Virus record (IMG/VR): IMGVR_UViG_3300029913_000003 | Span: 64,001-128,000 of that record | Length of the DNA stretch: 64,000 nucleotides | Source of the DNA: a virus | Strand: one strand, 5' to 3' | Shown: positions 5,406-36,007 of the stretch, in pieces | How the letters are laid out: each line of letters starts with the position of its first letter | Position numbering within the stretch: the first letter of the stretch is position 1 | Program-made: the position numbers and the translations under genes | The notes under the pieces: generated by a model | What the model saw: the letters and a program-made list of their open reading frames with translations, nothing else | What the model was told of the DNA's origin: nothing | The model's database searches: none

Positions 5406-5464
5406 GACTACAATAATGAAACAAATCAAATTTCAGATTGAAGCAATAAAAATATAATGGTACA

Positions 5465-5522: not shown

Positions 5523-5544
5523 AGTATCTTGCTGAAACAATTAA

Positions 5545-5612
5545 AATCTAATGGGATAGAAACCACCTTGAAGCTTGCAAAAGGAGATAGTGCAATTAAA
5601 CACACTTAGATA
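5545..5612 (+). repeat. GC-enriched hairpin unit (candidate small RNA)
   Basis: Near-identical to 5639-5706. The tandem period is about 95 nt. Confidence 0.4.
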
Positions 5613-5638
5613 TTAAATATTGTATAAGTAACTAAAAA

Positions 5639-5706
5639 ATCTAATGGGATAGAAACCACCTTGAAGCTTGCAAAAGGAGATAGTGCAATTAAACACACTT
5701 AGATAT
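5639..5706 (+). repeat. GC-enriched hairpin unit (candidate small RNA)
   Basis: Near-identical tandem copy of 5545-5612. Confidence 0.4.
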
Positions 5707-5756
5707 TAATGAAATTGAAAAAGTAATAAAAATAATCAAAGGCAATAGCCACCTTG

Positions 5757-5792
5757 AAGCTTGCAAAAGGAGAGATTAATATTACAAAAGTA
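5757..5792 (+). repeat. Truncated copy of the hairpin unit
   Basis: agccaccttgaagcttgcaaaaggagag. Confidence 0.3.
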
Positions 5793-5979
5793 AATATTGC
5801 AAAAGTAATAAAAATTCAAGGATTTATATTACAAGAGTAGATATAATGAACATAACCAAATGTTTATTGTTCCAATGATAAAGTTCTGTGAAGAACAAAG
5901 GACTGAAATAGATTTGTGACATTTTCAAGTAAAAGTACTTGAACTTTTAAAACAACATGAATTAATATAAAATTATGTA

Positions 5980-6950
5980 GGTTGAAATTCCAGGAAAGTG
6001 GATCAATAATGAGCAGAAAGTTAATGTCTTTCTATCGCTTTTGTTAAGTCTTATTTAAAATTCTTCTATATTAATTCTGTTGTTTTTTTAAAGCGTTCTT
6101 TGTAAAATTGAAAATATTTGGCTGTCTGTAGTCATAAATAAACTACGAAAGTAGTATAAAGTGAGTTATAGTTGTTTCTATAACTTGCGGTATTAAATGT
6201 GCAGTTGATTTTATTTTTTCGGAAATAAAATTAATTGTAAACAATAATACTTGAGCAGACAATCAGGATATCATTAAACCTTGATTATCGAGGGTAACAC
6301 TGTAGAGAAAGTGGTTTAATGCAAAGGCTATGTGGGTAGTCTGAGTGAGATGGGAACATCAATAAGAATAACCTGAAGGATTATTGCAAGAAATACGATT
6401 TCCAGTTGTGTAATTGCGTTATCCAATATAAAAGTTGACTTAAAACCGAAAGGTAAATTAGATTGTAATACAATGTACAGGTGGTGCTGTAATTAAGGTT
6501 ACCTTAACATTACCAAGTGTTACGAGAGTATCTTAGTTGACTTAAAATATGGAGGTAGGGATATCTCAGAGAGTAGTTTAGTATAGCTCAGTTCAAAAGA
6601 TTGAGAAGCTGGTTGTCGAACCACTACTTTCATCATCCACAAAACAAACTTTAACTGCAAATTTAATGCAAATTAAAATAAACAAATAAAGGAAAAGAGT
6701 TCGACTGTTGTTAGTGATAGGTGACTACTAGTTATGAGAAGCAATTCGTCGTAGCCGTGAAAGACCCCAAGTCCAACATGATTTTTAAGAAAGTTCTCTA
6801 AATCCGCAAGATTTAATCTGGAAGGCATTCTAGATGAGTAATGATTATTAAGAGAGTAATTAACAACAAAAGGAGTGGTGAATCTAATTGACCGTCATTG
6901 GAGGAGTACCAATTCAAAAGATTGGTGGAAAAGAAGCAGAAAAAATAATA
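5980..6950. ncRNA. Candidate large structured non-coding RNA (GC-elevated, ORF-free ~1 kb)
   Basis: About 35-40% GC by eye against about 25% around it. No ORF of 60 aa or more on any frame. Many short GC-rich helices. A tRNA-like D-loop/T-loop pair (TAGCTCAGTT ... GGTTGTCGAACC) near 6580-6635. Confidence 0.3.
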
Positions 6951-6999
6951 GTTTCTAAAGTTCTTCTCTATAATGCTGTATTCTCAAGCAATATAAAAT

Positions 7000-7085: not shown

Positions 7086-7397
7086 TTATAAATTGAATTT
7101 GTTTGCATCTTGTTTTAATTTATAATCTTTCATAAATTCTTCAACTTCGTCGTCAATAACTATATATTCTCTGTTTTTTAAACATAATCTATCATCCACG
7201 TACTTTCCTTTTTGATCTAGATACACTCCAACATCACCATTACAGGAACCAAATGGATGAGTAAGAGTACCAGTTAAATACTCATCATCCTCTTTAAATT
7301 TGATTTTAGTGCCTACTGGATATTTAGATCTACCTGCTAATATAACATCATCATCTAACATTGTAAATTGATGCTCATTAAATTTTAGTATTTTCAT
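7086..7397 (-). CDS. Family A variant (N-term MKILKFNE, C-term ANKFNL)
   Basis: C-terminal tag present. Start taken at the ATG at 7397 (MKILKFNEHQ), not at the upstream ORF-track start. Confidence 0.5.
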   Translation of the reverse strand: MKILKFNEHQFTMLDDDVILAGRSKYPVGTKIKFKEDDEYLTGTLTHPFGSCNGDVGVYLDQKGKYVDDRLCLKNREYIVIDDEVEEFMKDYKLKQDANKFNL

Positions 7398-7401
7398 ATT
7401 A

Positions 7402-7851
7402 CTATATATTAAATTTTTTAGCATTAAATATATCAGGATGATTTATCTCTAACCATTTGTTATATTCATCTAAATTGTTATAAGGTAGGTTATTACCTTC
7501 ACATACTAATATTTCTAATGTCTCTGGTAATAATGGTAACTCAGATAAATTATTATTACTACAATTTAATGTCTTTAATGAATATGGTAATGTCGGCAAT
7601 TCTTTTAAATTATTAGAATAGCAAAATATTTTTTTTATTGAGTGCGGTAAAGTAGGTAACTCACGCAAAACATTATTAAAACAAGATAATATCTCTAATG
7701 TCTCTGGTAATGTTGGCAATTCTTTTAAATTATTATTATAGCAATATAATTCTGTTGTTGTATCTGGAATATTTGATATTATAAATAATCCTTTATCATT
7801 TAATGTCAATACATTATCCATTATATGTTCAAATGTTTTTATATATTTCAT
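7402..7851 (-). CDS. Family A protein with leucine-rich repeats (LxxLPxLP type)
   Basis: N-terminal MKYIKTFE, C-terminal AKKFNI. Five tandem copies of NNLKELPTLPETLEIL. Confidence 0.65.
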   Translation of the reverse strand: MKYIKTFEHIMDNVLTLNDKGLFIISNIPDTTTELYCYNNNLKELPTLPETLEILSCFNNVLRELPTLPHSIKKIFCYSNNLKELPTLPYSLKTLNCSNNNLSELPLLPETLEILVCEGNNLPYNNLDEYNKWLEINHPDIFNAKKFNI

Positions 7852-18124: not shown

Positions 18125-18265
18125 TCATGTTAATTATTTTTATCTATTTAGTATATTTTCAACATTTTGTTTATATATTTAATATGAATTTGTTAATATA
18201 TTTTACATCGTAATAATATTTATAATAATAATTTATAAAAAAGTCATATTTTTAAAAATTTATTG

Positions 18266-18273
18266 TATCTTTG
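18266..18273 (+). promoter_or_regulatory. -7 box TATCTTTG (direct repeat of 15930 context)
   Basis: aatttattgtatctttg lies 15 nt upstream of the ATG at 18288. Confidence 0.45.
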
Positions 18274-18287
18274 TAAAAAAGATTAAT

Positions 18288-18500
18288 ATGAAATATCTAT
18301 GTAAAAAGACATATTTATCATATTTTATATTTGGTGAATATTATGAAAGTGAATTAGGTAGAGATAATACTATAAACATGATCATTGATAGTAACTCATG
18401 GATACATTTTAAGTTAGATAAAAATTCAAAGTTATATGAGTATTTTTATGATGAAAATCAAATTAGAAAAATGAAATTAAAAAAATTAAAAATATTTTAA
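18288..18500 (+). CDS. Family B tagged protein
   Basis: MKYLCKKTY ... IRKMKLKKLKIF. Confidence 0.55.
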   Translation: MKYLCKKTYLSYFIFGEYYESELGRDNTINMIIDSNSWIHFKLDKNSKLYEYFYDENQIRKMKLKKLKIF

Positions 18501-18501
18501 T

Positions 18502-19191
18502 ATGAAAGTAAGAATGTCAAGCAAAAATGATTATGATTCTAAATATGATTGGAATTGTTTTTGTCAAGGTGGAGAATCTGGAATCGTTTTACCATCAGGT
18601 AGTTTTGATAAATTATTTTCTGGAAATCCAATAGAAGGATTATCAGAAGGAATATCAAGTAAAGAAACTTATACTACCGCATTTTTTGAAGCATTTCCTA
18701 AAACTCCAGATTGCTTTATTCGTGGAGAAGGTAAAACAATTGAAGAAGCTGAAGAAAGTGCTTGGAAAAAATTTCAAAAGATTATAACTTGTAATCATGA
18801 AATGGAACGTAGAGATAGAACAGATGGTTATGCATATTGTAAACATTGCTCATATTCAGCGACTGTATTTGAACCTTTAACTAAATGTTGTAAATGTGGT
18901 AAACCAACCGCATATAGTACTGATTATAAAGGTAATTATTATTGTAAAAAACATCACTTTACAAAGCCAAAAAATCCAAATCATTCAATGTGGGAGATTG
19001 AGCATAAAAGACTTTCAAGAAAGCATAAGAAATTATTAAAAATATGTGCTAAAAAAATGTTTGAATCAGAAGGTCATTATGGTAAAATTAAATTTAAATA
19101 CTTTGCAGGAAAAATTCTTACTTGTGATGGGTATAGATTAGATATTTTATTTAGAAGTCAAGAAATAAAGTTTATACAAAAATGGAAATAA
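18502..19191 (+). CDS. Cys/His-rich zinc-binding hypothetical protein
   Basis: Multiple CxxC and HxxC pairs: CKHCSYS, CCKCGKP, CKKHHF. Confidence 0.45.
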   Translation: MKVRMSSKNDYDSKYDWNCFCQGGESGIVLPSGSFDKLFSGNPIEGLSEGISSKETYTTAFFEAFPKTPDCFIRGEGKTIEEAEESAWKKFQKIITCNHEMERRDRTDGYAYCKHCSYSATVFEPLTKCCKCGKPTAYSTDYKGNYYCKKHHFTKPKNPNHSMWEIEHKRLSRKHKKLLKICAKKMFESEGHYGKIKFKYFAGKILTCDGYRLDILFRSQEIKFIQKWK

Positions 19192-19192
19192 T

Positions 19193-19226
19193 TAAAAAAA
19201 GCATCAATTAAATTGATTCTTTTTTA
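19193..19226. terminator. Bidirectional intrinsic terminator
   Basis: aaaaaaaGCATCAATTaaATTGATTCtttttt. Confidence 0.45.
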
Positions 19227-19730
19227 TAAGTTAAAGTTTGAAGATGCTAAATGAAGAGGTAAATTTTCAGTTATAACATCATATAAAATTTTGAATTCAT
19301 CAATTATATCACCCATTGTTTTAGATTTTTTAATAATATTTTCTATTATAGGTGAATATATTTCAGTTAATTCAGTGTATACGTTATCTGGCATTTTCCT
19401 AATCTCAATTTTTGATGGACCTCCTATAAATCCATTAATTGGTGATGTATGATATTTAATTCTATTAACTGAATATTTTGGATTCATTGATTGCATAGCT
19501 GATTCCCTCTCTTTTTCTGTTATTATAATTTTTCTTAATTCAGGATCATTTAAGCATTCAGATTTTTCTATTATTTGTTCAATAATACCATAAATTGGAG
19601 AGCATGACCGATAATTAGTACCATAAGTCATATTTCCGTTACTGTTATTTATAGTAATATTAAAATCTTTATTCTTATATAAAGTAATTTCTCTCTCTTT
19701 CTGTTTTTCAAACGTTTTTAAATATTTCAT
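19224..19730 (-). CDS. Family A protein
   Basis: MKYLKTFE ... SSNFNL. Confidence 0.55.
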   Translation of the reverse strand: MKYLKTFEKQKEREITLYKNKDFNITINNSNGNMTYGTNYRSCSPIYGIIEQIIEKSECLNDPELRKIIITEKERESAMQSMNPKYSVNRIKYHTSPINGFIGGPSKIEIRKMPDNVYTELTEIYSPIIENIIKKSKTMGDIIDEFKILYDVITENLPLHLASSNFNL

Positions 19731-19739
19731 ATAAATAGT

Positions 19740-19949
19740 TTATGATAATTTTTTATATTGATTATCTGTTATTATTAATATATAATCACCTTCAGTGGTT
19801 GATATATTATATACACTCTGATTATTATTTATAGCAGATAAGATATCAAGATATTCATCTATCATATCCAAATCTAAATTTTTTTCAGATAATTTAGATG
19901 TCACGATTTCTTTAGTTATTTGTGATAACTCTAATATTCTAACTTTCAT
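19740..19949 (-). CDS. Hypothetical protein
   Basis: 69-aa ORF inside the Family A array, lacking both tags. Confidence 0.35.
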   Translation of the reverse strand: MKVRILELSQITKEIVTSKLSEKNLDLDMIDEYLDILSAINNNQSVYNISTTEGDYILIITDNQYKKLS

Positions 19950-20012
19950 TAGTGTATATTAATATTAATTTTTAATTGTAATACTTTGTTAATGATTATT
20001 ATATATTAATTT

Positions 20013-20351
20013 TTATAAGTTGAATTTATCTGATGTCAGTTCAAAATCTTGAAGTTTAACCTTTCCCATAAATAATGCATGATCTCTATTATCTGGTTCT
20101 AATTTTAAAATCCATTCAAAATATTCATCATAATCATCTGTTAAGCTATTATATTGTTTAACTTTTTCTTTATAAATATATACAAGAACATTTTCATTAG
20201 TATACCAAAGGCACCAATCTTCAATTAAATCATCTGGTACTCCTATCTTTTTTAAAGACAATCTAAAATATGGTTGCAATAATGTTACTTGCCAATATTT
20301 ATCCTCATATTTCCAATCACCATATTTTTCAAATGTATTTATATATTTCAT
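20013..20351 (-). CDS. Family A protein
   Basis: MKYINTFE ... SDKFNL. Confidence 0.6.
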   Translation of the reverse strand: MKYINTFEKYGDWKYEDKYWQVTLLQPYFRLSLKKIGVPDDLIEDWCLWYTNENVLVYIYKEKVKQYNSLTDDYDEYFEWILKLEPDNRDHALFMGKVKLQDFELTSDKFNL

Positions 20352-20683
20352 AGATTAAAATTTTTTGCTTTTATTTTATATTCTAAATCTTCTTTATTTT
20401 CAGAATAATCAATAATACTACTATATAAAAATTCTCTAAATCCAATATTATGATTAAGATTATAATTCTCATATCCAAATAAACTTGCAATCTCCATAGG
20501 TATATCTTCGTATTCAACACTTACTGTATTGAAATGATATTTTATTTCAATTTTTATAATTTTACCAATAGTATTATCAATAAAATCAGTCATTTCTTTA
20601 TTCTGCATGGAAGATTTCATTAATACATAATCTCCTACTTTTGGTTCATCTTTAATATTTTCAAATTTCTTTATATATTTCAT
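20348..20683 (-). CDS. Family A, GDYV/NNIGK core subfamily
   Basis: MKYIKKFEN..VGDYVLM..NTIGKII..AKNFNL. Confidence 0.6.
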   Translation of the reverse strand: MKYIKKFENIKDEPKVGDYVLMKSSMQNKEMTDFIDNTIGKIIKIEIKYHFNTVSVEYEDIPMEIASLFGYENYNLNHNIGFREFLYSSIIDYSENKEDLEYKIKAKNFNL

Positions 20684-20991
20684 AAGTTAAATTTATTTGC
20701 TTGTAATTTCAATTTTAATTCTTCAATTGTTTTTCCATATTCCACTAATAATTCGATATCAAAAATTCTTGTACCATCATGAAAAAATAAATCTATATTA
20801 TCTGGTATATTTTCATATCTAACTCTACATTTATATTTTTTTAAATTTGGATCGAATTCTACAGCTGTTAATCTACCAAAATTTTTAGTTACAAAATTTA
20901 TAACGCTATTAGTACTATAACTATTCATTAAAACATAATCACCAACTTCTGGTAAATCAATATTATTTTCAAATTTCTTTATATATTTCAT
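20680..20991 (-). CDS. Family A, GDYV/NNIGK core subfamily
   Basis: MKYIKKFEN..VGDYVLM..EELKLKLQANKFNL. Confidence 0.6.
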   Translation of the reverse strand: MKYIKKFENNIDLPEVGDYVLMNSYSTNSVINFVTKNFGRLTAVEFDPNLKKYKCRVRYENIPDNIDLFFHDGTRIFDIELLVEYGKTIEELKLKLQANKFNL

Positions 20992-21239
20992 AAATTAAAT
21001 TTATTGGTATTTAATAATAATTCAAAATTTTCAATTTCTAATGAAGTTAAAAATCTTAAAATTTGTTCTTTAATAATTCCAATTTTACATATTTCATTTT
21101 GAACTAAATAAAATGACTCGTCTTTTTTAATTATTTTAGCATCAAATGTATAGTTATTTTGTCTATATTTTATATAATCACCAACTTTACAATCGTTAGG
21201 ATTAAATAATTTCTTTTCAAATCTTTTTATATATTTCAT
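20988..21239 (-). CDS. Family A protein
   Basis: MKYIKRFE..VGDYIKY..TNKFNL. Confidence 0.6.
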   Translation of the reverse strand: MKYIKRFEKKLFNPNDCKVGDYIKYRQNNYTFDAKIIKKDESFYLVQNEICKIGIIKEQILRFLTSLEIENFELLLNTNKFNL

Positions 21240-21733
21240 AAGTTAAATTTATCTATATTATTATATAATCCAGGAATACTATAAATATTTCTAAAATATT
21301 TCGGAGTCATAAATTTTTCCTTCTTACAATCATAAACAAAAACTACTTCAATTTTTCTATAATCTTTTAAAAATACATGAATATCTCCAAATTCTGCTGA
21401 TTCACCATCGTAATTGACTCCTAATACAAAATCTGGTCCTTCACTTACATAATCAAATTCATATTGATTGATAGCATTTACTCCATCTTTTATTGATTTT
21501 GGAGTACCATCAAACCAATCGCAAACATCTATAGCAGCAGAGATATAATCATTATCTGTTACATCATCAGCCATTCCAAATGCATATTCTAAAATTTGAT
21601 GATTTAATGGTATAGGATCATCAGAAGGTAACGGCTTACCATTACAAAAACTAAGTGCAATTTCTGGTGTAACTTCTAAATAAAATTCAGCATCATTTTG
21701 ATCTAAACTTTCAAACCTTTTTATATATTTCAT
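21236..21733 (-). CDS. Family A protein
   Basis: MKYIKRFE ... IDKFNL. Confidence 0.6.
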   Translation of the reverse strand: MKYIKRFESLDQNDAEFYLEVTPEIALSFCNGKPLPSDDPIPLNHQILEYAFGMADDVTDNDYISAAIDVCDWFDGTPKSIKDGVNAINQYEFDYVSEGPDFVLGVNYDGESAEFGDIHVFLKDYRKIEVVFVYDCKKEKFMTPKYFRNIYSIPGLYNNIDKFNL

Positions 21734-22219
21734 AAGTTAAATTTAATTGTTTGATTAACTTGTTCAGGATCTTTTAATATTCTATATAATTCTAACCATC
21801 TTGTTATTTCTTCATATTCATCATCATCATATCTCCATTCATTTGGTAAAGTTGGATCATGAACTATTTCGTCATCATCATAAAGAATTTCAAATTTTTC
21901 TCCTATTAATACATTGAGTTCTTCCTTCGTAACTCTTATTATTTTTTTGCTACTCAAAGCATATAACGCTATCATGCCTTCTAAATGATTTTAAAAACTT
22001 TTTTATATCATCTTCTTCATCTGAATCATATCTCCATTCATCTAGATGATTTGAATCATATCTAATTCTTTCATTATCATAAAGAACTGTAAAATCATTG
22101 TCTATTAATGCATCAAGTTCTTCTTGAGTTACTTTTATAATTTTAGAATCATTATCTAAATTTATTAAATTAATCATATTTTCTTTTTTCCTTGATTCAA
22201 ATGTTTTTATGTATTTCAT
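21730..22219 (-). pseudogene. Family A member split by frameshift after an internal duplication
   Basis: ORF 21950-22219 has the N-terminal tag but ends ..VICFE. ORF 21730-21975 has the C-terminal tag but lacks the N-terminal tag. The two halves are paralogous (IIKVTQEELDALI / IIRVTKEELNVLI; DEWRYDSDEE / NEWRYDDDEYEE). Confidence 0.45.
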
Positions 22220-22530
22220 AAGTTAAATTTATTTGCACTATCATTAAGTTCAATTCGGTTATATAATTCTTCTGTTGTTATTTCTTTACCAAATTCATCA
22301 ACTAATTTATATGAAAAATTTAATAATCCTTCTTCAAGAATAATATGCTCAATTGTATATTGTATTAACGATTTTTTATCATTTTTATAATCCTTTTCAT
22401 ATTGTATATAATAACTATCTTTAATCAAATCATCAAAAGGAATATGACGTTTATCAACTGGTATAGTAACAATAGCGAATATTCCTGTAATGCTATCAGT
22501 TGAATTTTCATTAAATTTTTTTATTTTCAT
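22216..22530 (-). CDS. Family A variant (N-term MKIKKFNE, C-term ANKFNL)
   Basis: First gene of a ten-gene minus-strand array. Confidence 0.55.
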   Translation of the reverse strand: MKIKKFNENSTDSITGIFAIVTIPVDKRHIPFDDLIKDSYYIQYEKDYKNDKKSLIQYTIEHIILEEGLLNFSYKLVDEFGKEITTEELYNRIELNDSANKFNL

Positions 22531-22589
22531 ATTAATAATTGATTTTATCTATATATAAAATTTATAAGTTATTTTTTATATATAAAGAT

Positions 22590-23105
22590 ATGAAACATTT
22601 GAAATTATATGAGGAATTAAAATTCAATGAGAAACAATACCATACTTATGAACTATTGAATCTTGTTCAGATGCATGATTTAGGTTCAAAAGGAGAAGCT
22701 GAAATGATTGATATGATAAATTCTGGACAAATAGATTTAAATTTACAAGATCAACTAAGTTATAGAACAGCTTTAATATATTCTATGATTAATAGATATG
22801 AAAAAGTATTTGATGAATTGATAAAATCAGATGTGAATTTAGATTTACAAGATGATAATGGAAATACAGCATTAATAATCTCAGCAATAGGTAGCACTGG
22901 AAGTAGTAGTGATTATTATAAATCTATAATGGAAAAATTAATTGATGCAGGAGCAGATTGGAATAAAACACAAAATTATGGACGTGAAAAAGATTTTCTT
23001 GAACATATACAAGATAACGAATTTAAAAGACATATATTAAAGAAATATCATAAACAATATGAAATATATTTAATGATAAAAACTTCTGAAAAATTTAATA
23101 TATGA
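22590..23105 (+). CDS. Family A protein with ankyrin repeats
   Basis: Start at MKHLKLYEE (ATG at 22590). Ankyrin signatures GNTALIISA and DAGADWN. C-terminal SEKFNI. Confidence 0.6.
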   Translation: MKHLKLYEELKFNEKQYHTYELLNLVQMHDLGSKGEAEMIDMINSGQIDLNLQDQLSYRTALIYSMINRYEKVFDELIKSDVNLDLQDDNGNTALIISAIGSTGSSSDYYKSIMEKLIDAGADWNKTQNYGREKDFLEHIQDNEFKRHILKKYHKQYEIYLMIKTSEKFNI

Positions 23106-23575
23106 AATATATAAAAACATTTGAACAAAATTTAGATTTAAATAATGAATTAATAGACTCTTGTATAAATAATAATATAAAAAAAGTTGAAAGTTTAATA
23201 AAACAAGGAGCTGATGTTAATTATATCAATAAAGATGGTTTCAACTCATTAATATATTCTGTTAATAATATTGATATTTTAAAAATATTAATTAAAAACG
23301 GAGCGGATGTAAATATCCAAGATACTACAAATCAAGGTTATACACCATTATTACTAGCATCCTCTAATAGATTTATGTTTCCTTATATCGAAAATTATGA
23401 TACTATAAAATTATTAATAGATTCAGGAGCTGATTGGAATGTTAAAGGTAGAATTGTTAAAATTACTTTTTTTGATTATTTACCTACTGAAATTAAAGAA
23501 AAAATTAAAAAAGATTATCCAGATAAATATGAAGATTATTTATTACAACAAGAAGCTGAAAAATTCAACATATAA
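23102..23575 (+). CDS. Family A protein with ankyrin repeats
   Basis: MKYIKTFE. Ankyrin signatures QGADVNY, NGADVNIQD, GYTPLLLAS, DSGADWN. C-terminal AEKFNI. Confidence 0.65.
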   Translation: MKYIKTFEQNLDLNNELIDSCINNNIKKVESLIKQGADVNYINKDGFNSLIYSVNNIDILKILIKNGADVNIQDTTNQGYTPLLLASSNRFMFPYIENYDTIKLLIDSGADWNVKGRIVKITFFDYLPTEIKEKIKKDYPDKYEDYLLQQEAEKFNI

Positions 23576-23577
23576 AA

Positions 23578-23612
23578 AAAGACTCAATTAAATTGAGTCT
23601 TTTTTAAATTTT
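23578..23612. terminator. Bidirectional intrinsic terminator
   Basis: aaaaaaAGACTCAATTaaATTGAGTCTtttttt. Confidence 0.55.
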
Positions 23613-23628
23613 AGAAATATATTAATTT

Positions 23629-23829
23629 TTAATTTATTACTTCTACATTAGAACAATTCAGTCCTTTTTTACCTTCAACTAGATCAAAACTGACTTCGTC
23701 ATTTTCATATATTTTGTCTATCAAATTTGTGATGTGAACAAAATATTCCTTACCTGTTTCTTTTTCGGCTACGAACCCATATCCTTTTTCCGAATTGAAA
23801 AATTTTACGGTGCCATTTAATTTACTCAT
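23629..23829 (-). CDS. cspA: Cold-shock protein (CspA family)
   Basis: GTVKFFNSEKGYGFV ... VHITNL includes the RNP1/RNP2-like motifs. Confidence 0.85.
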   Translation of the reverse strand: MSKLNGTVKFFNSEKGYGFVAEKETGKEYFVHITNLIDKIYENDEVSFDLVEGKKGLNCSNVEVIN

Positions 23830-23896
23830 TATTTATTATTATTTTTATTATTGTGGATAAATTCCACATTCTATATAGTAATAAAAAATAATAAGT

Positions 23897-24772
23897 TTAT
23901 AAATATTTGAAATAATTATTTTTATAAGATTTTTTGTTACCTGATAATACTTCCCATATTCTATTAGTTTTAGTATTAAAATACGACGCACAATTTTTTA
24001 CACTATTAAATTCTTTAATTATTTCTCCACTTTCTGATATTTGAGCAACTTTTTTAGATCTTAATAATTTATATTCTTCAGTCATAGGTCTTTTTTTTAC
24101 ACCAATCATAGCTTTACTCATTTTCAATTTAACTTCATCTGTTCTTTTTTGACCAGTATTCTTTTTTACCCTTTTTTCAATAGTTTCTTTACTTTGCTGT
24201 TTACCTTTTTTTGAAATGCTTATTTTTAATTTAGCTTCATCACTCATTTTTTTACCTTTATTTAATATACTTAATTTTAATTTAGTTTCATCACTTGTTA
24301 TTCTACCTTTTTGTGATTTACTCATTTTTAATTTAGTTTCATCTGAAATATTTATTCCTTTTAATTTTTCTGATATTATTTTTTTTGTTTCTTCACTTTG
24401 TTTTATACCAAAGTGACTTTTGTTTCCAATACTTTTTTGCCTTAATATATCTTTTGTTTTGTCACTATGTTTCATTCCTAAATTATGTCCAGCATTAGGT
24501 AAAATATTATATCCATTTTTACAGCAATCAAAAAAATCAATATAATATTGTTCTCTAATTAAAATTTCATTAATACTACATTCTTCTAAAATTGTATATG
24601 TAAAATTTTCAATACCATATTTATCATAAGCTCTTTGTAATTTAATAGAATGATGTTTATTCTTTTTTAATTGATTCTTATGTTGAGTAAATCTTCCTTT
24701 AACATTTATTGATGATCCAACATAACATTTATTATTTATTAAATTTGTTATTTTATATACACCAATAATCAT
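23897..24772 (-). CDS. GIY-YIG homing endonuclease (Seg/I-TevI-like) with C-terminal repeated DNA-binding modules
   Basis: GVYKITNLINNKCYVGSS..RFTQHKN is the GIY-YIG motif. Repeated SDETKLKMSKSQKG / SDEAKLKIS modules. Confidence 0.8.
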   Translation of the reverse strand: MIIGVYKITNLINNKCYVGSSINVKGRFTQHKNQLKKNKHHSIKLQRAYDKYGIENFTYTILEECSINEILIREQYYIDFFDCCKNGYNILPNAGHNLGMKHSDKTKDILRQKSIGNKSHFGIKQSEETKKIISEKLKGINISDETKLKMSKSQKGRITSDETKLKLSILNKGKKMSDEAKLKISISKKGKQQSKETIEKRVKKNTGQKRTDEVKLKMSKAMIGVKKRPMTEEYKLLRSKKVAQISESGEIIKEFNSVKNCASYFNTKTNRIWEVLSGNKKSYKNNYFKYL

Positions 24773-28302: not shown

Positions 28303-28827
28303 TTATAAATTAAATTTATTTACTGTTTTATCAAATTCTATTTTCTTTTTATATTCATCTACATTAAAAGTTTTATATTTATCATTTGAATGATGATATA
28401 TATTACCATCATCTCCTATTTCAGCATCTACATTTCCTAAAACATCACATAATTTAGTAATGATTGTTAAGTTTTCACTATCATTTATTCTTTCAAAAAA
28501 TCCAGATCCATGTCCATTTCTTGTCAACCATAAATCATTACCAATTTGGTCATCTGTCATATCTTCAAAAACATCTCCTGCTGAATTAATAAACCATTCA
28601 ACTTCTTTTACAATCTCATCTTTAGAATTTTCATCGATATCATATATATTTTTTCCTTCCCATGGATCATAATCTGTTTCATGACCTTCTTCAGTCCAAA
28701 TTAATGCTGTTATATAGCTATCAACAGCAGTATCTATATCGTAATCATTTTCAAATTCATTAATATCATGATATTCTTCGAAATCTTCATCATCGTCAAA
28801 TTCTTCAAATATTTTTAAATGTTTCAT
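28303..28827 (-). CDS. Family A protein, acidic
   Basis: MKHLKIFEEFDDDEDFEE ... VNKFNL. Confidence 0.6.
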   Translation of the reverse strand: MKHLKIFEEFDDDEDFEEYHDINEFENDYDIDTAVDSYITALIWTEEGHETDYDPWEGKNIYDIDENSKDEIVKEVEWFINSAGDVFEDMTDDQIGNDLWLTRNGHGSGFFERINDSENLTIITKLCDVLGNVDAEIGDDGNIYHHSNDKYKTFNVDEYKKKIEFDKTVNKFNL

Positions 28828-28831
28828 AGTT

Positions 28832-29194
28832 TTACATATTAAATTTGTTTGCTGTTAATAATAGTTCAAGTTCTTCAATTTCACTTGAAGTTAAATCTCT
28901 ATCAATCTCACTTTCACCTATCCAAAATTCTTTTAATTCTCTTGTCTTTTTATGAATAGATATTACTTTATATCTTGGCTCATACATATCATCATCATTT
29001 TCATCAAAATCTGTATCGTTAACTTCAATAATTTTAACAAATGGACCTACAACATTCAATTCACTTTCAGAATCATCTAATTTTACATAATCTTCTAATT
29101 TTACATAATCTCCTACATGTTGAGATGTATAATGTCCTACTGGTGATAATTCGTCATCATCGTCAAATTCTTCAAATATTTTTAAGTGTTTCAT
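28832..29194 (-). CDS. Family A protein, acidic (paralog of 28303)
   Basis: MKHLKIFEEFDDDDE ... ANKFNM. Confidence 0.6.
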   Translation of the reverse strand: MKHLKIFEEFDDDDELSPVGHYTSQHVGDYVKLEDYVKLDDSESELNVVGPFVKIIEVNDTDFDENDDDMYEPRYKVISIHKKTRELKEFWIGESEIDRDLTSSEIEELELLLTANKFNM

Positions 29195-29199
29195 AATTT

Positions 29200-30582
29200 T
29201 TACATATTAAATTTATCTACATTTACAATATAACTATATTCATTTATAATTTCAGGATTCAATATATTTGATTTCATTATTAATTTATAATTTTCATTAT
29301 CATTTTCAATTAAGTATTTTTGAAATTCATAAGTTTTAAACCATTCTAATATTTTTCCATTATATAATTTAGCAATTTCTAATAAATTTATATGCTTTCT
29401 ATAATATTTAAACCAAATATCATAGTCATAATCATAAAATGCATATTTTTTTTCCATTTTTTTAAACATTTCTAAATTATCTGTTTTAATCCAAATCGGA
29501 AATATATCATCAGGACTGTCTACATATTTACTAACTACATCATCAATAGAGTTTTTTAAATTATCAAAATTAAGATGACTATAACTATCTTCATATTCAA
29601 TAGTTTCATATCTTAAGTCATCAGAATCATATATATTAGATAAAAATTCTTTAATAGTTTTAACATTTAATTTATATTTTATCATATACTTAATCATAGT
29701 TTTATACTCAAAAACCAATTCTATCTGATATTTTTTTGTGTCACTATCATGATTAGTATTATCATTAATATTAAAAGGCATTTTTTCTAATGCTTTCTTT
29801 GCTGCTATTTCTACTGCACGTTCATGAGCCATTGAAATTTCACTTTCAAATGTTTCTAAATCATCAGTTAAATCTAAATATTTAAATAAGTCTGCTATTT
29901 TACCTTGTTCTGTAGGATCTATATTATCGTCAAAATAAAATAACTTGGATAATTCTATAATTTTATCATTAGTTTCTTTTTTTGTATAATTACCCAAATA
30001 ATCTAATTCTTCTTTATCAACATAGAATTCATAATTATTATTATCTCGAGTTAATTGTAAAATAGAACTTATAGAACCATTTTCGATATCAAGTAAATTT
30101 TCAAGAACCTCAATATTAATAATTAAAGTGAATCCTTTCTCATCATATGAAAATTCTTTTTCATATGGATAATGATAATTTTTTTCTGAATTTATTATTG
30201 CTTCATCTTCATCGAATCCAATATATTTGTTGATATCTTCTGGTTTAAATTTCTTTGATGATAATACTTTTATTAAATTTGGTATATTATCTATATTATC
30301 TTCAACATCAGAACTTTCTGTTATTGGATTATTTTTTAAATATGCAACTTGTTTAGTTTGTTTAAATGTTAAGTCACTAAGTTTTTTAACTTTAATATTT
30401 ATTTCATTATTTAATTCTGCTTGTGTTTTTCTATCTTTTTCGTTTTGAACTCTCTTTCTAAGTTTTTTGAGACTATCTTGCATATATGCAATCTTATCTG
30501 CAATGTTATCATCAATTTTGAAAGGTTTTTCGTTATTTATTTTGATTGGAGTAAAATATTCATAATTTTTAATATATCTCAT
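29200..30582 (-). CDS. Family A large variant (460 aa; N-term MRYIKNYEYF, C-term VDKFNM)
   Basis: Carries the terminal tags with a long acidic, coiled-coil-like middle. Confidence 0.5.
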   Translation of the reverse strand: MRYIKNYEYFTPIKINNEKPFKIDDNIADKIAYMQDSLKKLRKRVQNEKDRKTQAELNNEINIKVKKLSDLTFKQTKQVAYLKNNPITESSDVEDNIDNIPNLIKVLSSKKFKPEDINKYIGFDEDEAIINSEKNYHYPYEKEFSYDEKGFTLIINIEVLENLLDIENGSISSILQLTRDNNNYEFYVDKEELDYLGNYTKKETNDKIIELSKLFYFDDNIDPTEQGKIADLFKYLDLTDDLETFESEISMAHERAVEIAAKKALEKMPFNINDNTNHDSDTKKYQIELVFEYKTMIKYMIKYKLNVKTIKEFLSNIYDSDDLRYETIEYEDSYSHLNFDNLKNSIDDVVSKYVDSPDDIFPIWIKTDNLEMFKKMEKKYAFYDYDYDIWFKYYRKHINLLEIAKLYNGKILEWFKTYEFQKYLIENDNENYKLIMKSNILNPEIINEYSYIVNVDKFNM

Positions 30583-30600
30583 AATAATATATATAATTTT

Positions 30601-31050
30601 TTATAGATTAAATTTTTTTGCACTTATTTTAATTAAAAGGTTATTAATATATTCTTTTAATTCTATCATATCGTCTGAGGTTTTAATTGTAAAATCTCTA
30701 AATATAACATCAGGATTATATTTTTGAAATTTATTTTTATACCAATTCAATTGTAATTTACTCAATATATCATCTCTATTATAATCATCCGATAACGGAA
30801 TTATATGTTCCATACTATTATAGTTATATGGTAATAAATTAATATCATCAACATGATTTAATATTATAAAAAAATATATATCATTAGTAAATAATTCAAA
30901 TTTTATTTTTTTTGAATTTAAAAAATTAATAATATATGGTATTTTTTCAAAAAATTTATCACTAATAATTACTCCTGGTAATTTACCATATTCTCCTCCA
31001 ACTTTAATATCGGACGGTTCTATTACTTTATAACTTTCTAAATATTTCAT
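30601..31050 (-). CDS. Family A variant (N-term MKYLESYKV, C-term AKKFNL)
   Basis: C-terminal tag is conserved. Confidence 0.5.
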   Translation of the reverse strand: MKYLESYKVIEPSDIKVGGEYGKLPGVIISDKFFEKIPYIINFLNSKKIKFELFTNDIYFFIILNHVDDINLLPYNYNSMEHIIPLSDDYNRDDILSKLQLNWYKNKFQKYNPDVIFRDFTIKTSDDMIELKEYINNLLIKISAKKFNL

Positions 31051-31153
31051 ATATAAACTTTATTTTATTATATTATTATATATAAAAAATATAAAATCAT
31101 TTGTGGGTATGCAAATTAATTTATATATTTGCTTAAATAAAAATAAAATAAAA

Positions 31154-32434: not shown

Positions 32435-32833
32435 ATGAAAATACGAAATGGATTTGTAAGTAACTCATCATCAAGCAGTTTTGTAGTAATTAAAGATTCT
32501 TTAACTAATAAACAAAAAGAAATGATTTATGATTATCAAAGTTATGTTGAGTTTTTTAAAACTATTGATGAAATATGTATAGATAAATTCGAATATTGTG
32601 ATACTGATCCATGGAGAATAGTTGATTATAATGATTTTATATTTGGTGAAACTTCAATGGATAATTTTAGTATGCAAGATTTTTTAGATTATATAAAAGT
32701 TGATCCAGATTCAATTAATTGGAACGAAGGATATAATGACGAGCCATATCAAAGTCAATTAGATTTTATAACTGAGTCAAAAAAAAAGTTTCGTAAAAAA
32801 AAACTTATTAAATTAAAATATAAAAAATATTAA
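32435..32833 (+). CDS. Hypothetical protein (paralog pair with 32839)
   Basis: Shared FVVIKDSLTNKQKEMIYDY / FVVSKKALSKRQKDMIINY and YNDFIFGETS / YNDLIFGETS. Basic K-L-K tail. Confidence 0.45.
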   Translation: MKIRNGFVSNSSSSSFVVIKDSLTNKQKEMIYDYQSYVEFFKTIDEICIDKFEYCDTDPWRIVDYNDFIFGETSMDNFSMQDFLDYIKVDPDSINWNEGYNDEPYQSQLDFITESKKKFRKKKLIKLKYKKY

Positions 32834-32838
32834 AATAG

Positions 32839-33315
32839 ATGAAAATTGAACCAAGTAGTTTTGTAGTTTCAAAAAAAGCGTTAAGTAAGAGACAAAAAGA
32901 TATGATTATTAATTATGTTGATTGGATAAATATATTTATAACAAATGAAGATGATATTGATAAATTTAAAAATTATGAACCAAAATCTTGGAATATAACA
33001 GAATATAATGATTTAATATTTGGTGAAACATCTAAATATATATTTGATATGATTGAATATTTAAAATATATAAGTGTTGATAGTAATTATATAATGTTTG
33101 ATGACGGATGTACTGAACCAAGTGAAAATCAACTTGAATTTATTAGTAATATTAAACAAGTAATTAAAAGTTCTGAAATTGAAAAAAATGAAAACATAAA
33201 AAAAGATTTTAAAACATCAGTAAATAGTTTAGATTTTAGTAAATCAAAACCTAGTATTAATGGCATAATTTTTAATCAATCTAAGTCAAAAAGGCACGAA
33301 AAAAAGAAAAAATGA
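32839..33315 (+). CDS. Hypothetical protein (paralog of 32435)
   Basis: Tandem duplicate of 32435 with a divergent C-terminus. Confidence 0.45.
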   Translation: MKIEPSSFVVSKKALSKRQKDMIINYVDWINIFITNEDDIDKFKNYEPKSWNITEYNDLIFGETSKYIFDMIEYLKYISVDSNYIMFDDGCTEPSENQLEFISNIKQVIKSSEIEKNENIKKDFKTSVNSLDFSKSKPSINGIIFNQSKSKRHEKKKK

Positions 33316-33575
33316 GTCAAAAATTTTTAAAATATAATTTTAATGAGGTTGATAATTCATCAAATCTACATAAGTATATTGATAAATATAATAGTTTAGT
33401 ACTTTATATTTTCAAATCTAGTTGGGAAAAATATTATATTTGTGTAGAAGAATGGGGTGATGAAGAAAAATCAGAATTAAAATGCTTAACAGTAAAAGAT
33501 ATTAATAAAATTTATGGAATAAATAATTTTTTAAGAAAGGAAAAAATAAATGAAATTAATGAAAGCTCATTGTAA
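33312..33575 (+). CDS. Hypothetical protein
   Basis: 87-aa ORF. Confidence 0.35.
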   Translation: MSQKFLKYNFNEVDNSSNLHKYIDKYNSLVLYIFKSSWEKYYICVEEWGDEEKSELKCLTVKDINKIYGINNFLRKEKINEINESSL

Positions 33576-33828
33576 AAATAATTTTTATCAATTTGAAAAA
33601 AATAAATATTATATTATTAATAACATTTATTCAGTATTTGATAAAGATGATTTTATATCAATTGAAGATAATGAACATTTGGTATTTAGATTTAGATTAA
33701 ATAAATCTATGACATATGTTGATGATTTTATAGGTGATAATGAATATTATTTTTATGACTATTTTTGTTTTTTAAATGAAGAAAGAAAGAAAAAATTAGA
33801 AAAACTATCTGAGTTAGAAAAAAGTTAG
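33550..33828 (+). CDS. Hypothetical protein with K-L-E-K-L tail
   Basis: C-terminal ERKKKLEKLSELEKS, a Family B-like tail. Confidence 0.35.
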   Translation: MKLMKAHCKNNFYQFEKNKYYIINNIYSVFDKDDFISIEDNEHLVFRFRLNKSMTYVDDFIGDNEYYFYDYFCFLNEERKKKLEKLSELEKS

Positions 33829-33862
33829 TAATTTTTACTAACTTTTTTTTATATATATTAGT

Positions 33863-34405
33863 ATGAAATATTTGAAAAAATTTGAAAATTATGATTTAAG
33901 AGGAGAATATCCTGATATGTTTGAACCAAGAACAGAAGAGGACGAGCCTCAAATTGTACCAGGGTTTGAAGATGGTACAATAGATCCAGATGATGATGAG
34001 GTATATCATATTAGTAGTGAAGTTAGTGAGAAGGAACAATATGAAAATTTTAAAAAAATAACAAAAGAAAGAAATTTCAAAGAAACTAATAATGAAATAA
34101 TTATAAACATTCACAAATTATATCATGATTTTTATATGTCTATTTATAATCCTAATAAGCATTATTCAAAATTTCTAAGAGAAGAAATTATAGGTAAATA
34201 TATATCAGATGGAGTAATTGATTTTATGACTGATATAAAATATCATGGTATAATAAAAGGATTAAACTTTCAATATATTAATGAAAGTGCTCTTGTTTCT
34301 GCTGAATTAGTCGGAATAGATGAGTTAAAATACGAAAATTCAATATGTATGAATATTATTACTATTGATAAACTAAAGACTAATGCAAATAAATTCAATT
34401 TATGA
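33863..34405 (+). CDS. Family A protein
   Basis: MKYLKKFE ... ANKFNL. Confidence 0.6.
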   Translation: MKYLKKFENYDLRGEYPDMFEPRTEEDEPQIVPGFEDGTIDPDDDEVYHISSEVSEKEQYENFKKITKERNFKETNNEIIINIHKLYHDFYMSIYNPNKHYSKFLREEIIGKYISDGVIDFMTDIKYHGIIKGLNFQYINESALVSAELVGIDELKYENSICMNIITIDKLKTNANKFNL

Positions 34406-34689
34406 AACATATTAATAAATTTAAAATGAATGAGAAAAAGTCAGATAATATACAGAAATATAATATAGGAAATTATGTTAAATTAAAAGCAATAATTTTT
34501 ATTGATAATATTCCAAGATATACAAAAATAATAAAAATAGATCCAACTGTTAATGGCTATTATTATTTATGTAATGATCCTAATAACAAAACAATTTGGG
34601 TATCGAATGATGAAATTGAAAGAAAATTAACAACTAATGAGATTGAAAAATATGAATTAGATTCAAATGTAAATAAATTTAATTTATGA
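34402..34689 (+). CDS. Family A variant
   Basis: MKHINKFK..IGNYVKL..VNKFNL. Confidence 0.55.
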   Translation: MKHINKFKMNEKKSDNIQKYNIGNYVKLKAIIFIDNIPRYTKIIKIDPTVNGYYYLCNDPNNKTIWVSNDEIERKLTTNEIEKYELDSNVNKFNL

Positions 34690-35021
34690 ATAACCACAAA
34701 TCAGATATAGTAATAGAGCATGAAATAGAATATCATTCATTAAAATTTAATTCTATAGATAAAGATGATGTTAAATTTATTACTAAATTTATACAAAAAT
34801 ATAAATATGTGAAAATAATACATGAATTAAATAATAATATTGAAATATCATATTATAAAAATAATGCATTTCATAATGATTTCGGACCATCTATATTATA
34901 TAAAAAAGATAATGAAATAATTATTAATAAAAAATATTATTTGAATGGAGTTGAATTAAGTTATGATACTTGGAAAAATGGATTTCGTAAATACAAATTA
35001 TTAAAATTAAAAGAACTATAA
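34686..35021 (+). CDS. Hypothetical protein with R-K-Y-K-L-L-K-L-K tail
   Basis: C-terminal YLNGVELSYDTWKNGFRKYKLLKLKEL. Confidence 0.45.
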   Translation: MNNHKSDIVIEHEIEYHSLKFNSIDKDDVKFITKFIQKYKYVKIIHELNNNIEISYYKNNAFHNDFGPSILYKKDNEIIINKKYYLNGVELSYDTWKNGFRKYKLLKLKEL

Positions 35022-35136: not shown

Positions 35137-35796
35137 TTATAAATTAAATTTGTTGGTAGATTTTTTTATCTTTAAATAATCTTCAACCTCTTTTTTGCTT
35201 TTAGAATATAATTTAATATCTTTAATTCTAAATTCATGTTTTCCTAGATTTTTAATAATAGGATTTGTATCATTATAAAACTGATTTATCTCTCCTATCA
35301 TTTTTTTAGGTATATCTCTATATTCAATTACATATGTATTTTTCTCGTTTTGTCTAATAACTCTTCCAATGTTATTATTTATATATTCATCAAAAATATT
35401 GTCGTCATCACTATATCTATTACTATTTATTTCGCATAATACATAATCTCCTATCATTGGTTCATCTGGAATCTTCCAGTCAGATTTCAATGTAAACATA
35501 TATGCATTTTTCATAGTTATTATTTCATCTGTTTTAATATCTTGAACATCTACATAAGCATTATATAATAAATTAGTTGTTACATTCCTATAACCTCTTC
35601 CACTCCAATATATTTGTATAACTTTATATTCTCTACCATATTTAATTTCTTTTTCATTACCATATTCTAATTCACCATACTGAGTTATTCTACCTGTATA
35701 GTCACGATATGCGTCAAATTTTGTAGAACAAATTACAATATCATTTACTGAATATACAATATCATCGTTACTCTCATATTTTTTTATATATTTCAT
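35137..35796 (-). CDS. Family A protein with two GDYV-type modules
   Basis: MKYIKKYE..VNDIVIC..IGDYVLCE..TNKFNL. Confidence 0.6.
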   Translation of the reverse strand: MKYIKKYESNDDIVYSVNDIVICSTKFDAYRDYTGRITQYGELEYGNEKEIKYGREYKVIQIYWSGRGYRNVTTNLLYNAYVDVQDIKTDEIITMKNAYMFTLKSDWKIPDEPMIGDYVLCEINSNRYSDDDNIFDEYINNNIGRVIRQNEKNTYVIEYRDIPKKMIGEINQFYNDTNPIIKNLGKHEFRIKDIKLYSKSKKEVEDYLKIKKSTNKFNL

Positions 35797-35799
35797 AAT

Positions 35800-35988
35800 T
35801 TAAAATTTTGTTTGAAATGATACCATATCTTTTGTTTTATTGGGCATTACATCAACTGGCTCAAGTGTACCTCCACCTTTTTTCTTTTTCTTTTTCTTTT
35901 TCTCTTCATTTTTATATGATTTGTGCTGTGGTTTATATGGAACATATTCAACACCAACATATTCTTCAAATGTTTTTAAATTTTTCAT
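35800..35988 (-). CDS. Short Family A-like ORF with poly-Lys run encoded by a (CTTTTT)4 repeat
   Basis: MKNLKTFEEY ... KKKKKKKKGGG. Lacks the C-terminal tag. Possibly a phase-variable or decayed member. Confidence 0.35.
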   Translation of the reverse strand: MKNLKTFEEYVGVEYVPYKPQHKSYKNEEKKKKKKKKGGGTLEPVDVMPNKTKDMVSFQTKF

Positions 35989-36007
35989 AAATTAAATTTT
36001 TTTTGTA

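Follow-up and report, generated by a model that had tools for sequence, protein, structure and literature searches.

What keeps the boundary between neighbouring genes alike, copy after copy, in a viral genome? The question is raised by the window analysed here, a stretch of 64,000 nucleotides (nt) that covers positions 64,001 to 128,000 of the IMG/VR record IMGVR_UViG_3300029913_000003. Between its positions 20340 and 21245, and in other arrays of small genes, the 3' end of one gene and the 5' end of the next make up a conserved sequence of about 40 nt. The first-pass annotation had read this junction as a nucleotide-conserved cassette border that provides both translational coupling and a substrate for homologous recombination. 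From our analysis it is probable that the junction reflects, in DNA, two protein ends that a large family conserves, and that whole genes are lost, gained and patched by recombination at these ends.

The stop/start junction and its array

The open reading frames (ORFs) 20013-20351, 20348-20683, 20680-20991, 20988-21239 and 21236-21733 lie on the minus strand, in an array that runs on to 22530, and overlap one another by 4 nt as TTATGA. Twenty gene pairs of the window share the junction CAAATAAATTTAAC(T/A)TATGAAATATATAAAAACATTTGAA, four of them within 20340-21245 on the minus strand. Aligned in the form AAATTTAA[CT]nT-ATG, the junctions (n = 20 in the window) show a column conservation of 80-100% from about -17 to +24. 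The 31-mer TTAACTTATGAAATATATAAAGAAATTTGAA has 8 matches at three mismatches or fewer, against 0.00 expected from shuffled sequences, and ATGAAATATATAAA has 27 matches in the window against 2.2 expected. Exact shared runs of at least 25 nt occur in 17 junction pairs, the longest run being 47 nt; the junction is one of the window's most repeated long sequences, and its sole symmetry is the short palindrome TAAATTTA. The claim that a conserved stop/start junction of about 40 nt recurs across the arrays is thereby borne out. ATGA overlaps are found at 18 of 24 family junctions, as against 9 of 72 other same-strand neighbour pairs. The interiors of the genes, which had been called dissimilar, are so for 20013-20351, 20988-21239 and 21236-21733, all of them BLAST singletons, but not for 20348-20683 and 20680-20991, which are paralogs of an SH3-like subfamily. 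The array is laid out as follows, with L010 and L012 denoting two related genomes.

19224-22530, minus: operon-like array holding the junctions under study, recognised from the ORF list, the termini, synteny with L010 and L012, and the same order in independent assemblies
Genes in order of transcription, minus: I 22216-22530; H 21730-22219 (frameshift-split); G 21236-21733; E 20988-21239; D 20680-20991; B 20348-20683; A 20013-20351; then a non-family gene of 69 amino acids (aa); then 19224-19730
20328-20386, minus: junction from B to A, ...IKAKNFNL-stop / MKYINTFEK; ATGA at 20348-20351
20660-20718, minus: junction from D to B, ...LQANKFNL-stop / MKYIKKFEN; ATGA at 20680-20683; exact match to the 31-mer; cassette C of L010 and L012 is absent here
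20968-21026, minus: junction from E to D, ...LNTNKFNL-stop / MKYIKKFEN; ATGA at 20988-20991
21216-21274, minus: junction from G to E, ...NNIDKFNL-stop / MKYIKRFEK; ATGA at 21236-21239; cassette F of L010 and L012 is absent here
21710-21768, minus: junction from H to G, ...NQTIKFNL-stop / MKYIKRFES
22196-22254, minus: junction from I to H, ...DSANKFNL-stop / MKYIKTFES

Gene H (21730-22219, minus) contains an internal tandem duplication of a unit of about 50 aa, and a frameshift splits it into two overlapping ORFs. Its orthologs in L010 and L012 are single ORFs of 162 aa; the frameshift of the window is real, since it is present in all independent assemblies. Gene H and the cassette 36733-37141 are two cassettes in decay.

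Protein ends or a DNA element

Read as protein, the junction encodes a C-terminal motif, ...E-[ED]-L-E-x-x-[LI]-x-A-[NK]-K-[FY]-N-[LI]-stop, and an N-terminal motif, M-K-[YH]-[IL]-K-x-[FY]-E. Among the 127 ORFs of the window, 32 carry the N-motif, 37 the C-motif and 29 both, so that about 40 ORFs (ca. 30%) bear family ends. What had been described as one element comes apart into its halves: 8 N-motifs and 13 C-motifs of the window stand outside family-family junctions, array-terminal genes retain NKFNL-TAA before terminators with no start downstream, and array-first genes retain MKYIKxFE with no family gene upstream. In L008, a contig of 531 kb whose family ends read ...ANKYNL and MK[HY][IL]Kx[YF]E, the amino acids are kept and all six codons are used for the final Leu, with a stop-to-ATG spacing of -4, +1 to +4 or +15. 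Amino-acid substitutions within the motifs are conservative (I/L/V, Y/H, F/Y). The supposed 40-nt element is thus shown to be two independent peptide motifs placed back to back and conserved at the protein level.

The likeness of the DNA follows from the codon usage of this genome, in which AAA has a share of 0.92, AAT 0.92, TTT 0.89, GAA 0.90 and TAT 0.95. Because Lys, Asn, Phe, Glu and Tyr are each written about 90% of the time with one codon, conserved peptides necessarily resemble conserved DNA. Codon identity was examined among paralogs and among orthologs. For the paralogs, pairwise codon identity among the junctions was compared with a null in which codons were resampled from interior usage with the amino acids fixed; in the window it amounts to 0.820 at the N-terminal motif (null 0.791, z = 0.9) and to 0.724 at the C-terminal motif (null 0.762). 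Orthologs among the window, L010 and L012 are 55-80% identical in amino acids; wherever they share a residue, the codons were scored as the same or not, with the rates of the gene interiors as expectation. The same codon stood at 174 of 210 residues in the N-motif, where 178.3 were expected, and at 218 of 273 in the C-motif, where 219.3 were expected. Conservation at the nucleotide level beyond that of the amino acids, as the first-pass annotation had proposed, is therefore not seen: codon identity among paralogs equals the null, and synonymous sites of orthologs have diverged at the junction as they have in the gene interiors. Amino-acid constraint together with codon bias suffices to account for the nucleotide conservation of the junction. 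Breakpoints in related genomes, on the other hand, do coincide with junctions, as described below.

The gene family

After trimming of the ends, 11 bodies are SH3-like (a subfamily of about 110 aa), 4 are ankyrin bodies, and another 24, with lengths of 62 to 460 aa, are BLAST singletons. The SH3-like bodies, a five-stranded small barrel of the KOW-Tudor-PsaE type, include those of 20348-20683, 20680-20991, 51992-52336 and others. Among the ankyrin members, 7848-8420 matches Pfam Ank (67 bits) and Ank_2 (67.3 bits) above the gathering score, 23102-23575 matches Ank (54 bits) and Ank_2 (52.6 bits), and 52333-52863 matches Ank_2; the fourth, 22590-23105, joins them in the body-level BLAST clustering and by a weak Ank_2 match of a 171-aa product in L033 (precomputed Pfam). 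Two unrelated bodies were modelled with AlphaFold, and the model of the ankyrin body reached a confidence score (pLDDT) of 90. Residues 1-10, the most conserved, have a pLDDT below 50 in both models, in which the N-terminal tag is predicted to be an unpacked linear tag.

A profile search with the SH3-like subfamily returned 2,771 relatives among 1.84 billion representatives from public metagenomes (50% clustering), 1,584 of them at E <= 1e-10. Conservation was calculated from 155 full-length family sequences (95-130 aa), that is, the 150 best matches and those of a first search. In percent, their N-terminus reads M-K90-Y74/H20-I58/L36-K89-x-F58/Y36-E91 and their C-terminus ...A58-N55/K32-K96-Y79/F20-N99-L77/I21. 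Pfam and PHROGs hold no model for any non-ankyrin member. Neither a tblastn search of a family member against 50,697 GenBank phages nor a nucleotide search of 16000-24000 against GenBank phages gave a match, so that at BLAST sensitivity the family is not found in cultured or published phages. A scan of metagenomes with protein G gave 81 pattern matches, none confirmed, and the useful relatives came from the viral_contigs collection. In the neighbourhoods of more distant relatives (anchor protein at most 53% identical) the end motifs are absent, and a literature search found no relevant description of a huge-phage family with conserved termini. The family is very large, lineage-specific and unannotated, and carries the same ends on structurally unrelated bodies.

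Looser N-termini of a similar kind (MQYFKKFENI, MRNIKKFNEF, MKNIKSFEAF) occur in L032 (LR756504.1 345457-386296), part of a published huge phage of 636 kb, where NKFNL C-termini are absent; the gp32 of the window, too, starts with MKEFEN. Because of these N-termini the N-terminal pattern may predate the family and extend beyond it.

Many other small ORFs, including those of a set called Family B (MKYLCKK...), end in another C-terminal motif that recurs, R-K-x-K-L-x-K-L-x-E-[IL]..., at window loci 15508-16624, 18288-18500, 32435-35021, 39239-43024 and 60304-60906. These ORFs appear to form a second terminus-defined gene set with a copy number that varies among relatives; Family B has 5 copies in the window, 2 in L010 and 4 in L012. 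Its 17-nt overlaps, to which the first-pass annotation had drawn attention, are genuine: they lie at 16177-16193 and 16415-16431, read ..GAAATATCTATGTAA, and recur in L012 at 9782-9798.

16177-16431, plus: Family B gene between two 17-nt dual-coding overlaps, upstream frame ..EISM-stop, downstream frame MKYLCKK

Gain, loss and patching of cassettes in related genomes

A comparison of related genomes for polymorphism of single cassettes with breakpoints at the junction had been suggested, and it found both. In the array under study the gene order is I-H-G-F-E-D-C-B-A in L010, I-H-G-E-D-B-A in the window (without F and C) and I-H-G-F-D-C-B-A in L012 (without E). These three single-cassette differences in presence or absence (C, E and F) occur among orthologs that are 59-80% identical, with the ATGA junction intact every time.

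In another array, the related sequence L009 has a nucleotide identity to the window of 94.7% to the left and 99.6% to the right of a deletion that removes exactly 52349-52844, the site of an ankyrin cassette of 176 aa. The two alignments have 32 nt in common, and the crossover falls inside AAATTTAA of both flanking C-motifs. L007, which is 89% identical, has a different cassette of 108 aa and a TnpB gene at the same site, and its similarity to the window stops directly after the N-motif of the next gene. The neighbouring gene 51992-52336 is a mosaic of four segments when the window, L009 and L007 are aligned.

Columns 0-65: the three sequences are identical
Columns 66-135: L009 resembles L007, and the window is unlike both
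Columns 135-270: the window and L007 are 96-98% identical, L009 64-78%
Columns 270-360: L009 and L007 are 89-96% identical; the window, over the final ca. 85 nt of the gene and the junction, is instead 84-100% identical to a paralogous junction on the opposite strand, 57529-57587
52262-52356, plus: patch of about 95 nt comprising the last ca. 27 codons of 51992-52336, the junction and MKYVKTFE; about 95% identical to 57529-57623 (minus)

The similarity of the patch ends exactly after TTTGAA, and L009 and L007 have another 3' end there. Where the residues agree, the codons agree as well at 20/22 positions of the patch and at 24/37 positions upstream of it (p = 0.03). The junction patch of 51992-52336 has been copied from, or is shared with, its paralog, and these comparisons show that identical stretches of 25-47 nt and other conserved family patches are used in recombination: the ends of the deletions or insertions of single cassettes, of the replacements and of the gene-conversion patches are located in these motifs or at them. 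The proposal that the junction acts as a recombination border at which whole cassettes are shuffled is thus supported by the C, E and F differences, the L009 deletion, the L007 replacement and the mosaic, as a consequence of the shared ends.

The TnpB gene of L007 (Cas12f1-like_TNB) occupies 2264-3715 on the minus strand, equivalent to ca. 52360-52930 of the window, at this hot spot of cassette gain and loss. Two loci near the first array also differ among the genomes. Gene 16679-18124 (minus, 481 aa), the product of which looks like a methyltransferase by its sequence, is found together with the adjacent Family B copy 18288-18500 in the window and not in L010 or L012. Gene 23897-24772 (minus, 291 aa), a putative GIY-YIG endonuclease judging from its N-terminal sequence, is present in the window and L012, and an unrelated ORF of 233 aa stands in its place in L010.

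Genome context and expression of the arrays

The window has a GC content of 21-22% and is 100% identical to metagenome contigs from peat or bog of up to 346 kb. It encodes a T4-type gp32 (Pfam); the nearest GenBank relatives of this gp32 are in uncultured phage genomes of 634-735 kb, and IMG/VR relatives reach 675 kb. No Shine-Dalgarno sequence was found anywhere in the window, and the Bacteroidota promoter pattern TTTG-N17-21-TAnnTTTG has 12 matches against 5.4 expected. From the sizes of the contigs and relatives, the lack of Shine-Dalgarno sequences and the enriched promoter pattern, this is a huge phage, most likely of a Bacteroidota host.

The Bacteroidota pattern never falls inside a junction, and a scan for sigma-70 promoters gave 71 against 66 expected, i.e. 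background; these two results rule out the junction as a promoter. Folding of six junction RNAs gave minimum free energies of -0.4 to -7.3 kcal/mol (z from -1.2 to +1.6) and no structure, which rules out a stem-loop of the attC or PeSL kind. AAATTTA as a -1 frameshift heptamer was discarded on inspection, being in the wrong phase. The sequence TTTT[TA]TATATA has 9 exact matches against 1.5 expected; all relevant ones stand at a distance of 4-27 nt before array-first genes and before two genes that look structural (46928-48793 and 44054-45358). At the start of the orthologous array, L010 and L012 keep the motif, which is possibly a phage-specific promoter, perhaps a late one; to judge from the sequence, some of its spacings, of 4-6 nt, would give nearly leaderless mRNAs.

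22549-22584, divergent: promoter-like TTTT[TA]TATATA motifs before the first genes at 22530 (minus) and 22590 (plus)
Other sites of the motif: 31077-31088, 33846-33857, 44021-44032, 48818-48829, 50829-50840, 57884-57895, 62503-62514

The arrays look like operons, and it is plausible that their internal genes depend on coupled translation, given the ATGA overlaps, the lack of Shine-Dalgarno sequences and of internal promoter motifs, and the absence of structure.

Weighing the explanations

The reading that we favour can be put as a short mechanism. Family genes follow one another head to tail in operon-like arrays, in most cases with stop and start overlapping as ATGA, and termination-reinitiation would couple the translation of each downstream gene to that of the gene before it. 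Both the N-terminal octapeptide, which is flexible, and the C-terminal tail would serve as recognition tags for a common partner, a role like capsid targeting being the leading guess. Exchange between two junctions automatically restores an intact stop/start junction. Recombination at the ends would be a by-product that creates a fast-evolving arsenal of cassettes and not the cause of the conservation of the ends.

Several observations weigh against this reading. The penultimate Asn is encoded by the rare codon AAC in 76 of 127 family genes (60%), against 12% in the background and only 5% both in the F/Y-N-L/I context elsewhere and at non-family penultimate codons. This one synonymous site is clearly non-neutral, so that some selection at the nucleotide or translation level acts at -3 of the downstream ATG; the preference may reflect a reinitiation context, with C at -3 of the next ATG. 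The AAC site (e.g. 20684-20686 and 21240-21242; also in L008, L010 and L012) flips often between orthologs and is weakly associated with a downstream start (67/105 vs 9/22). Codon-pair context and a general effect of C-terminal position were ruled out as its source by the comparison with those contexts. In L008 and L010 the codon identity of the C-motif is modestly above the null (z = 2.9-4.0), which could come from some concerted evolution. As regards recombination, the present sequences are exactly identical over only 8 nt at the L009 crossover, which is little for classical homologous recombination; some breakpoints are located within genes, at further conserved patches; and whole genes are inserted or deleted where no family motif is present (three extra genes of L010, and the methyltransferase-like gene 16679-18124, only in the window), so that junction homology is not required for turnover. 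At the array under study, 17 near-identical contigs all have the same order and show no heterogeneity in cassette number. Finally, the tag function is something that we infer entirely.

The indels and replacements exactly at the junctions, the rank of the junction among the most repeated long sequences and the modest codon excess of the C-motif in L008 and L010 would also suit a dedicated DNA-level border that is kept for shuffling, comparable to integron attC sites or the PeSL elements of T4-type phages, with the peptide conservation being secondary. We think this improbable: synonymous sites at the junction diverge as they do in the gene interiors and the substitutions are conservative at the amino-acid level, the two halves occur apart with varying spacing and no hairpin, neither an integrase nor a site-specific recombinase accompanies the arrays, and mosaic breakpoints also lie inside genes. 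The codon tests and the variable spacing largely refute it. Nor do we give much credence to conservation driven by translation, where the junction would be a termination-reinitiation or initiation region for the Shine-Dalgarno-less ribosomes of Bacteroidota and the peptide motifs the by-products of an optimal mRNA. Such a region would fit the general lack of Shine-Dalgarno sequences, the enrichment of ATGA at family junctions, the unstructured junction RNA, the second codon AAA and the AAC preference that puts C at -3 of ATG. It does not explain why the C-motif is retained in array-terminal genes before terminators and the N-motif in promoter-proximal first genes; moreover, spacing in L008 is variable, there is no excess synonymous constraint, AAC is weakly tied to a downstream start, and non-family genes of the same genome are translated without the junction sequence.

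Rather more weight attaches to the possibility, which we still regard as unlikely, that the N-terminal octapeptide is a capsid-targeting or propeptide signal like the capsid targeting sequence (CTS) of T4, and that the arrays encode diversifying proteins that are packaged and injected, for example anti-defence factors. The family carries a conserved, disordered tag of 8-10 aa on bodies that are unrelated, as has been described for the T-even internal proteins (PMC3012670) and the CTS (PMC8442874); the last residue of the tag is Glu, a T4-type gp32 is encoded by the phage, and the arrays share the promoter-like motif, known from 9 sites only, with the structural-like genes 46928-48793 and 44054-45358. 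However, tagged ORFs make up about 30% of those in the window, far above any known set of internal proteins; the family is not basic, with a median isoelectric point of 5.8 against 6.3 for other ORFs; the T4 CTS has no matching C-terminal motif and its sequence resemblance is weak (M1, K2 and F7 only); and genes for a prohead protease and a scaffold are not in the window. That the shared ends are unselected, undiverged remnants of recent tandem duplications has next to no probability. The neighbouring cassettes B, C, D and F are indeed paralogs, and in Family B the 30 nt before the junctions hardly differ, but interiors are only 30-40% identical or unrelated while the ends persist in 2,771 clusters (50% identity) and in genomes with saturated synonymous sites; the ortholog codon test and the family-wide conservation already refute it.

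Comparison with known systems

The closest known mechanism is the modular shuffling mediated by PeSL in T4-type phages; here the exchange is homologous and takes place at coding termini. PeSL (promoter-early stem-loop) cassettes are intergenic elements of about 100 bp in which a sigma-70 promoter and a Shine-Dalgarno sequence are combined with a G/C stem-loop terminator (Arbiol et al. 2010, PMC2839356; Comeau et al. 2014, PMC4122927). In both cases a short repeat borders small non-essential ORFs in hyperplastic regions, a single ORF lies between two copies in one genome and is replaced by one chimeric copy in a relative, and recombination restores a functional border. Out of four features of PeSL, the junction has one, the flanking of differentially present ORFs (52349-52844 in relation to L009; cassettes C, E and F). 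Unlike PeSL, it is not intergenic (18 of 24 junctions have the 4-nt overlap), contains neither promoter nor hairpin, and is a repeat of coding sequence in which the encoded peptides are what is conserved.

The T4 capsid targeting sequence, MKTYQEFIAE, is found on diverse internal proteins of T-even phages (PMC3012670, PMC8442874). The likeness lies in unrelated, fast-evolving small proteins that share an N-terminal tag of about 10 residues with an MK start, aromatic residues and a Glu at the end, encoded in variable loci of a gp32-encoding phage. The present family differs in having a conserved C-terminus as well, in being vastly more numerous, and in not being basic: 23% of its members have an isoelectric point above 8.5, and the high basicity of IPI-III, not a strictly defining feature, is not seen.

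Integron cassettes resemble the arrays in forming one-orientation series of promoterless single-ORF cassettes behind a common promoter, with presence/absence polymorphism. Here, by contrast, the borders are coding and have no imperfect-palindrome hairpin, the exchange looks driven by homology, and breakpoints also fall inside genes. No integrase was found among the ORFs adjoining the arrays, the rest of the genome not having been searched for one; together with the missing hairpin, this rules out the junction as an attC site. In the modular theory of Susskind and Botstein, conserved boundary "linker" sequences of lambdoid phages are said to act as crossover points for the exchange of modules. 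Those linkers likewise are short homologous stretches at gene borders, but they are sporadic and mostly non-coding or of low level between phages, whereas here one pair of motifs occurs about 40 times per 64 kb in one genome. Polymorphic toxins, finally, combine a long conserved N-terminal trafficking region with swapped C-terminal toxin domains and immunity genes (PMC3482391). Both systems diversify as a conserved segment recombines with alternative cassettes; in the present one, it is whole small genes, conserved at their two ends, that are exchanged, and Pfam and PHROGs give no toxin or immunity signature.

Further arrays and other features of the window

The remaining family genes are distributed as follows.

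7086-9180, minus: second family array, five genes including the ankyrin gene 7848-8420, three ATGA junctions
22590-23575, plus: divergently transcribed pair of family genes with ankyrin bodies, recognised from the termini, with 22590-23105 assigned by clustering and a weak hit and 23102-23575 by Pfam
28303-31050, minus: family array with spacers of 4-18 nt between the protein ends (KFNM-stop ... ATG), including the 460-aa member 29200-30582
35137-38580, minus: family array of nine cassettes, including the decayed cassette 36733-37141
50864-53710, plus: family array with the recombination hot spot 3' of gene 51992-52336
52333-52863, plus: ankyrin cassette of 176 aa, absent in L009 and replaced by a different 108-aa cassette in L007
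57040-57878, minus: family array of two genes, the true start of the first probably at 57878 (MKYLKYYEN); partner of the patch 52262-52356

The decayed cassette 36733-37141 (minus) begins MKHLKIYED..., has a stop at codon 20, and its C-terminal ...SKFNL-stop is readable in another frame.

Apart from the family, the window contains a full-length GOLLD RNA at 6569-6990 (plus; Rfam RF02032, 278.9 bits, E = 1.6e-78), at the end of an ORF-free region. Within the ORF-free stretch 3200-6670 (plus), ATTTGGTAAAACAAAAAACTTTTTG occurs in eight exact copies, at 3501, 3599, 3708, 3818, 4173, 4918, 5226 and 5373. Six of the copies are followed by the Bacteroidota -7 element TAAnTTTG in full, which has a TTTG some 19-20 nt upstream of it, and those at 3501 and 4173 by TAAnTTTA; by their sequence, the copies look like repeated strong promoters for a series of small non-coding RNAs. 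Two adjacent tRNA-Gln genes lie at 62828-62991 (minus), with the anticodons CTG and TTG; the second is unusually long (87 nt).

Significance

For the scanning of sequences the case carries a caution, as at 21% GC conserved peptides mimic conserved DNA elements. For the biology of very large phages, it is a concrete instance of the turnover of hyperplastic regions by way of conserved coding termini, and not of intergenic regulatory cassettes. It also exposes a very large unannotated protein family, with at least 2,771 clusters at 50% identity in one subfamily, in which folds without relation to one another bear the terminal tags. Should these tags be targeting signals, they would identify the effectors available to a clade of huge phages, and foreign proteins could be loaded as with the T4 CTS. 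Going further, it is conceivable, though we rate the chance as low, that the tags are portable addresses that mark about one third of the genes in such regions of huge Bacteroidota phages as cargo for one machinery, be it packaging into the giant capsid followed by injection, as in an enlarged T4 CTS and internal-protein system, or docking to a phage-built compartment or chaperone. Were address tags and recombination borders one and the same, any ORF that gains the tags would become both deliverable and shuffleable, and the arrays would amount to a self-organising, diversifying arsenal of effectors.

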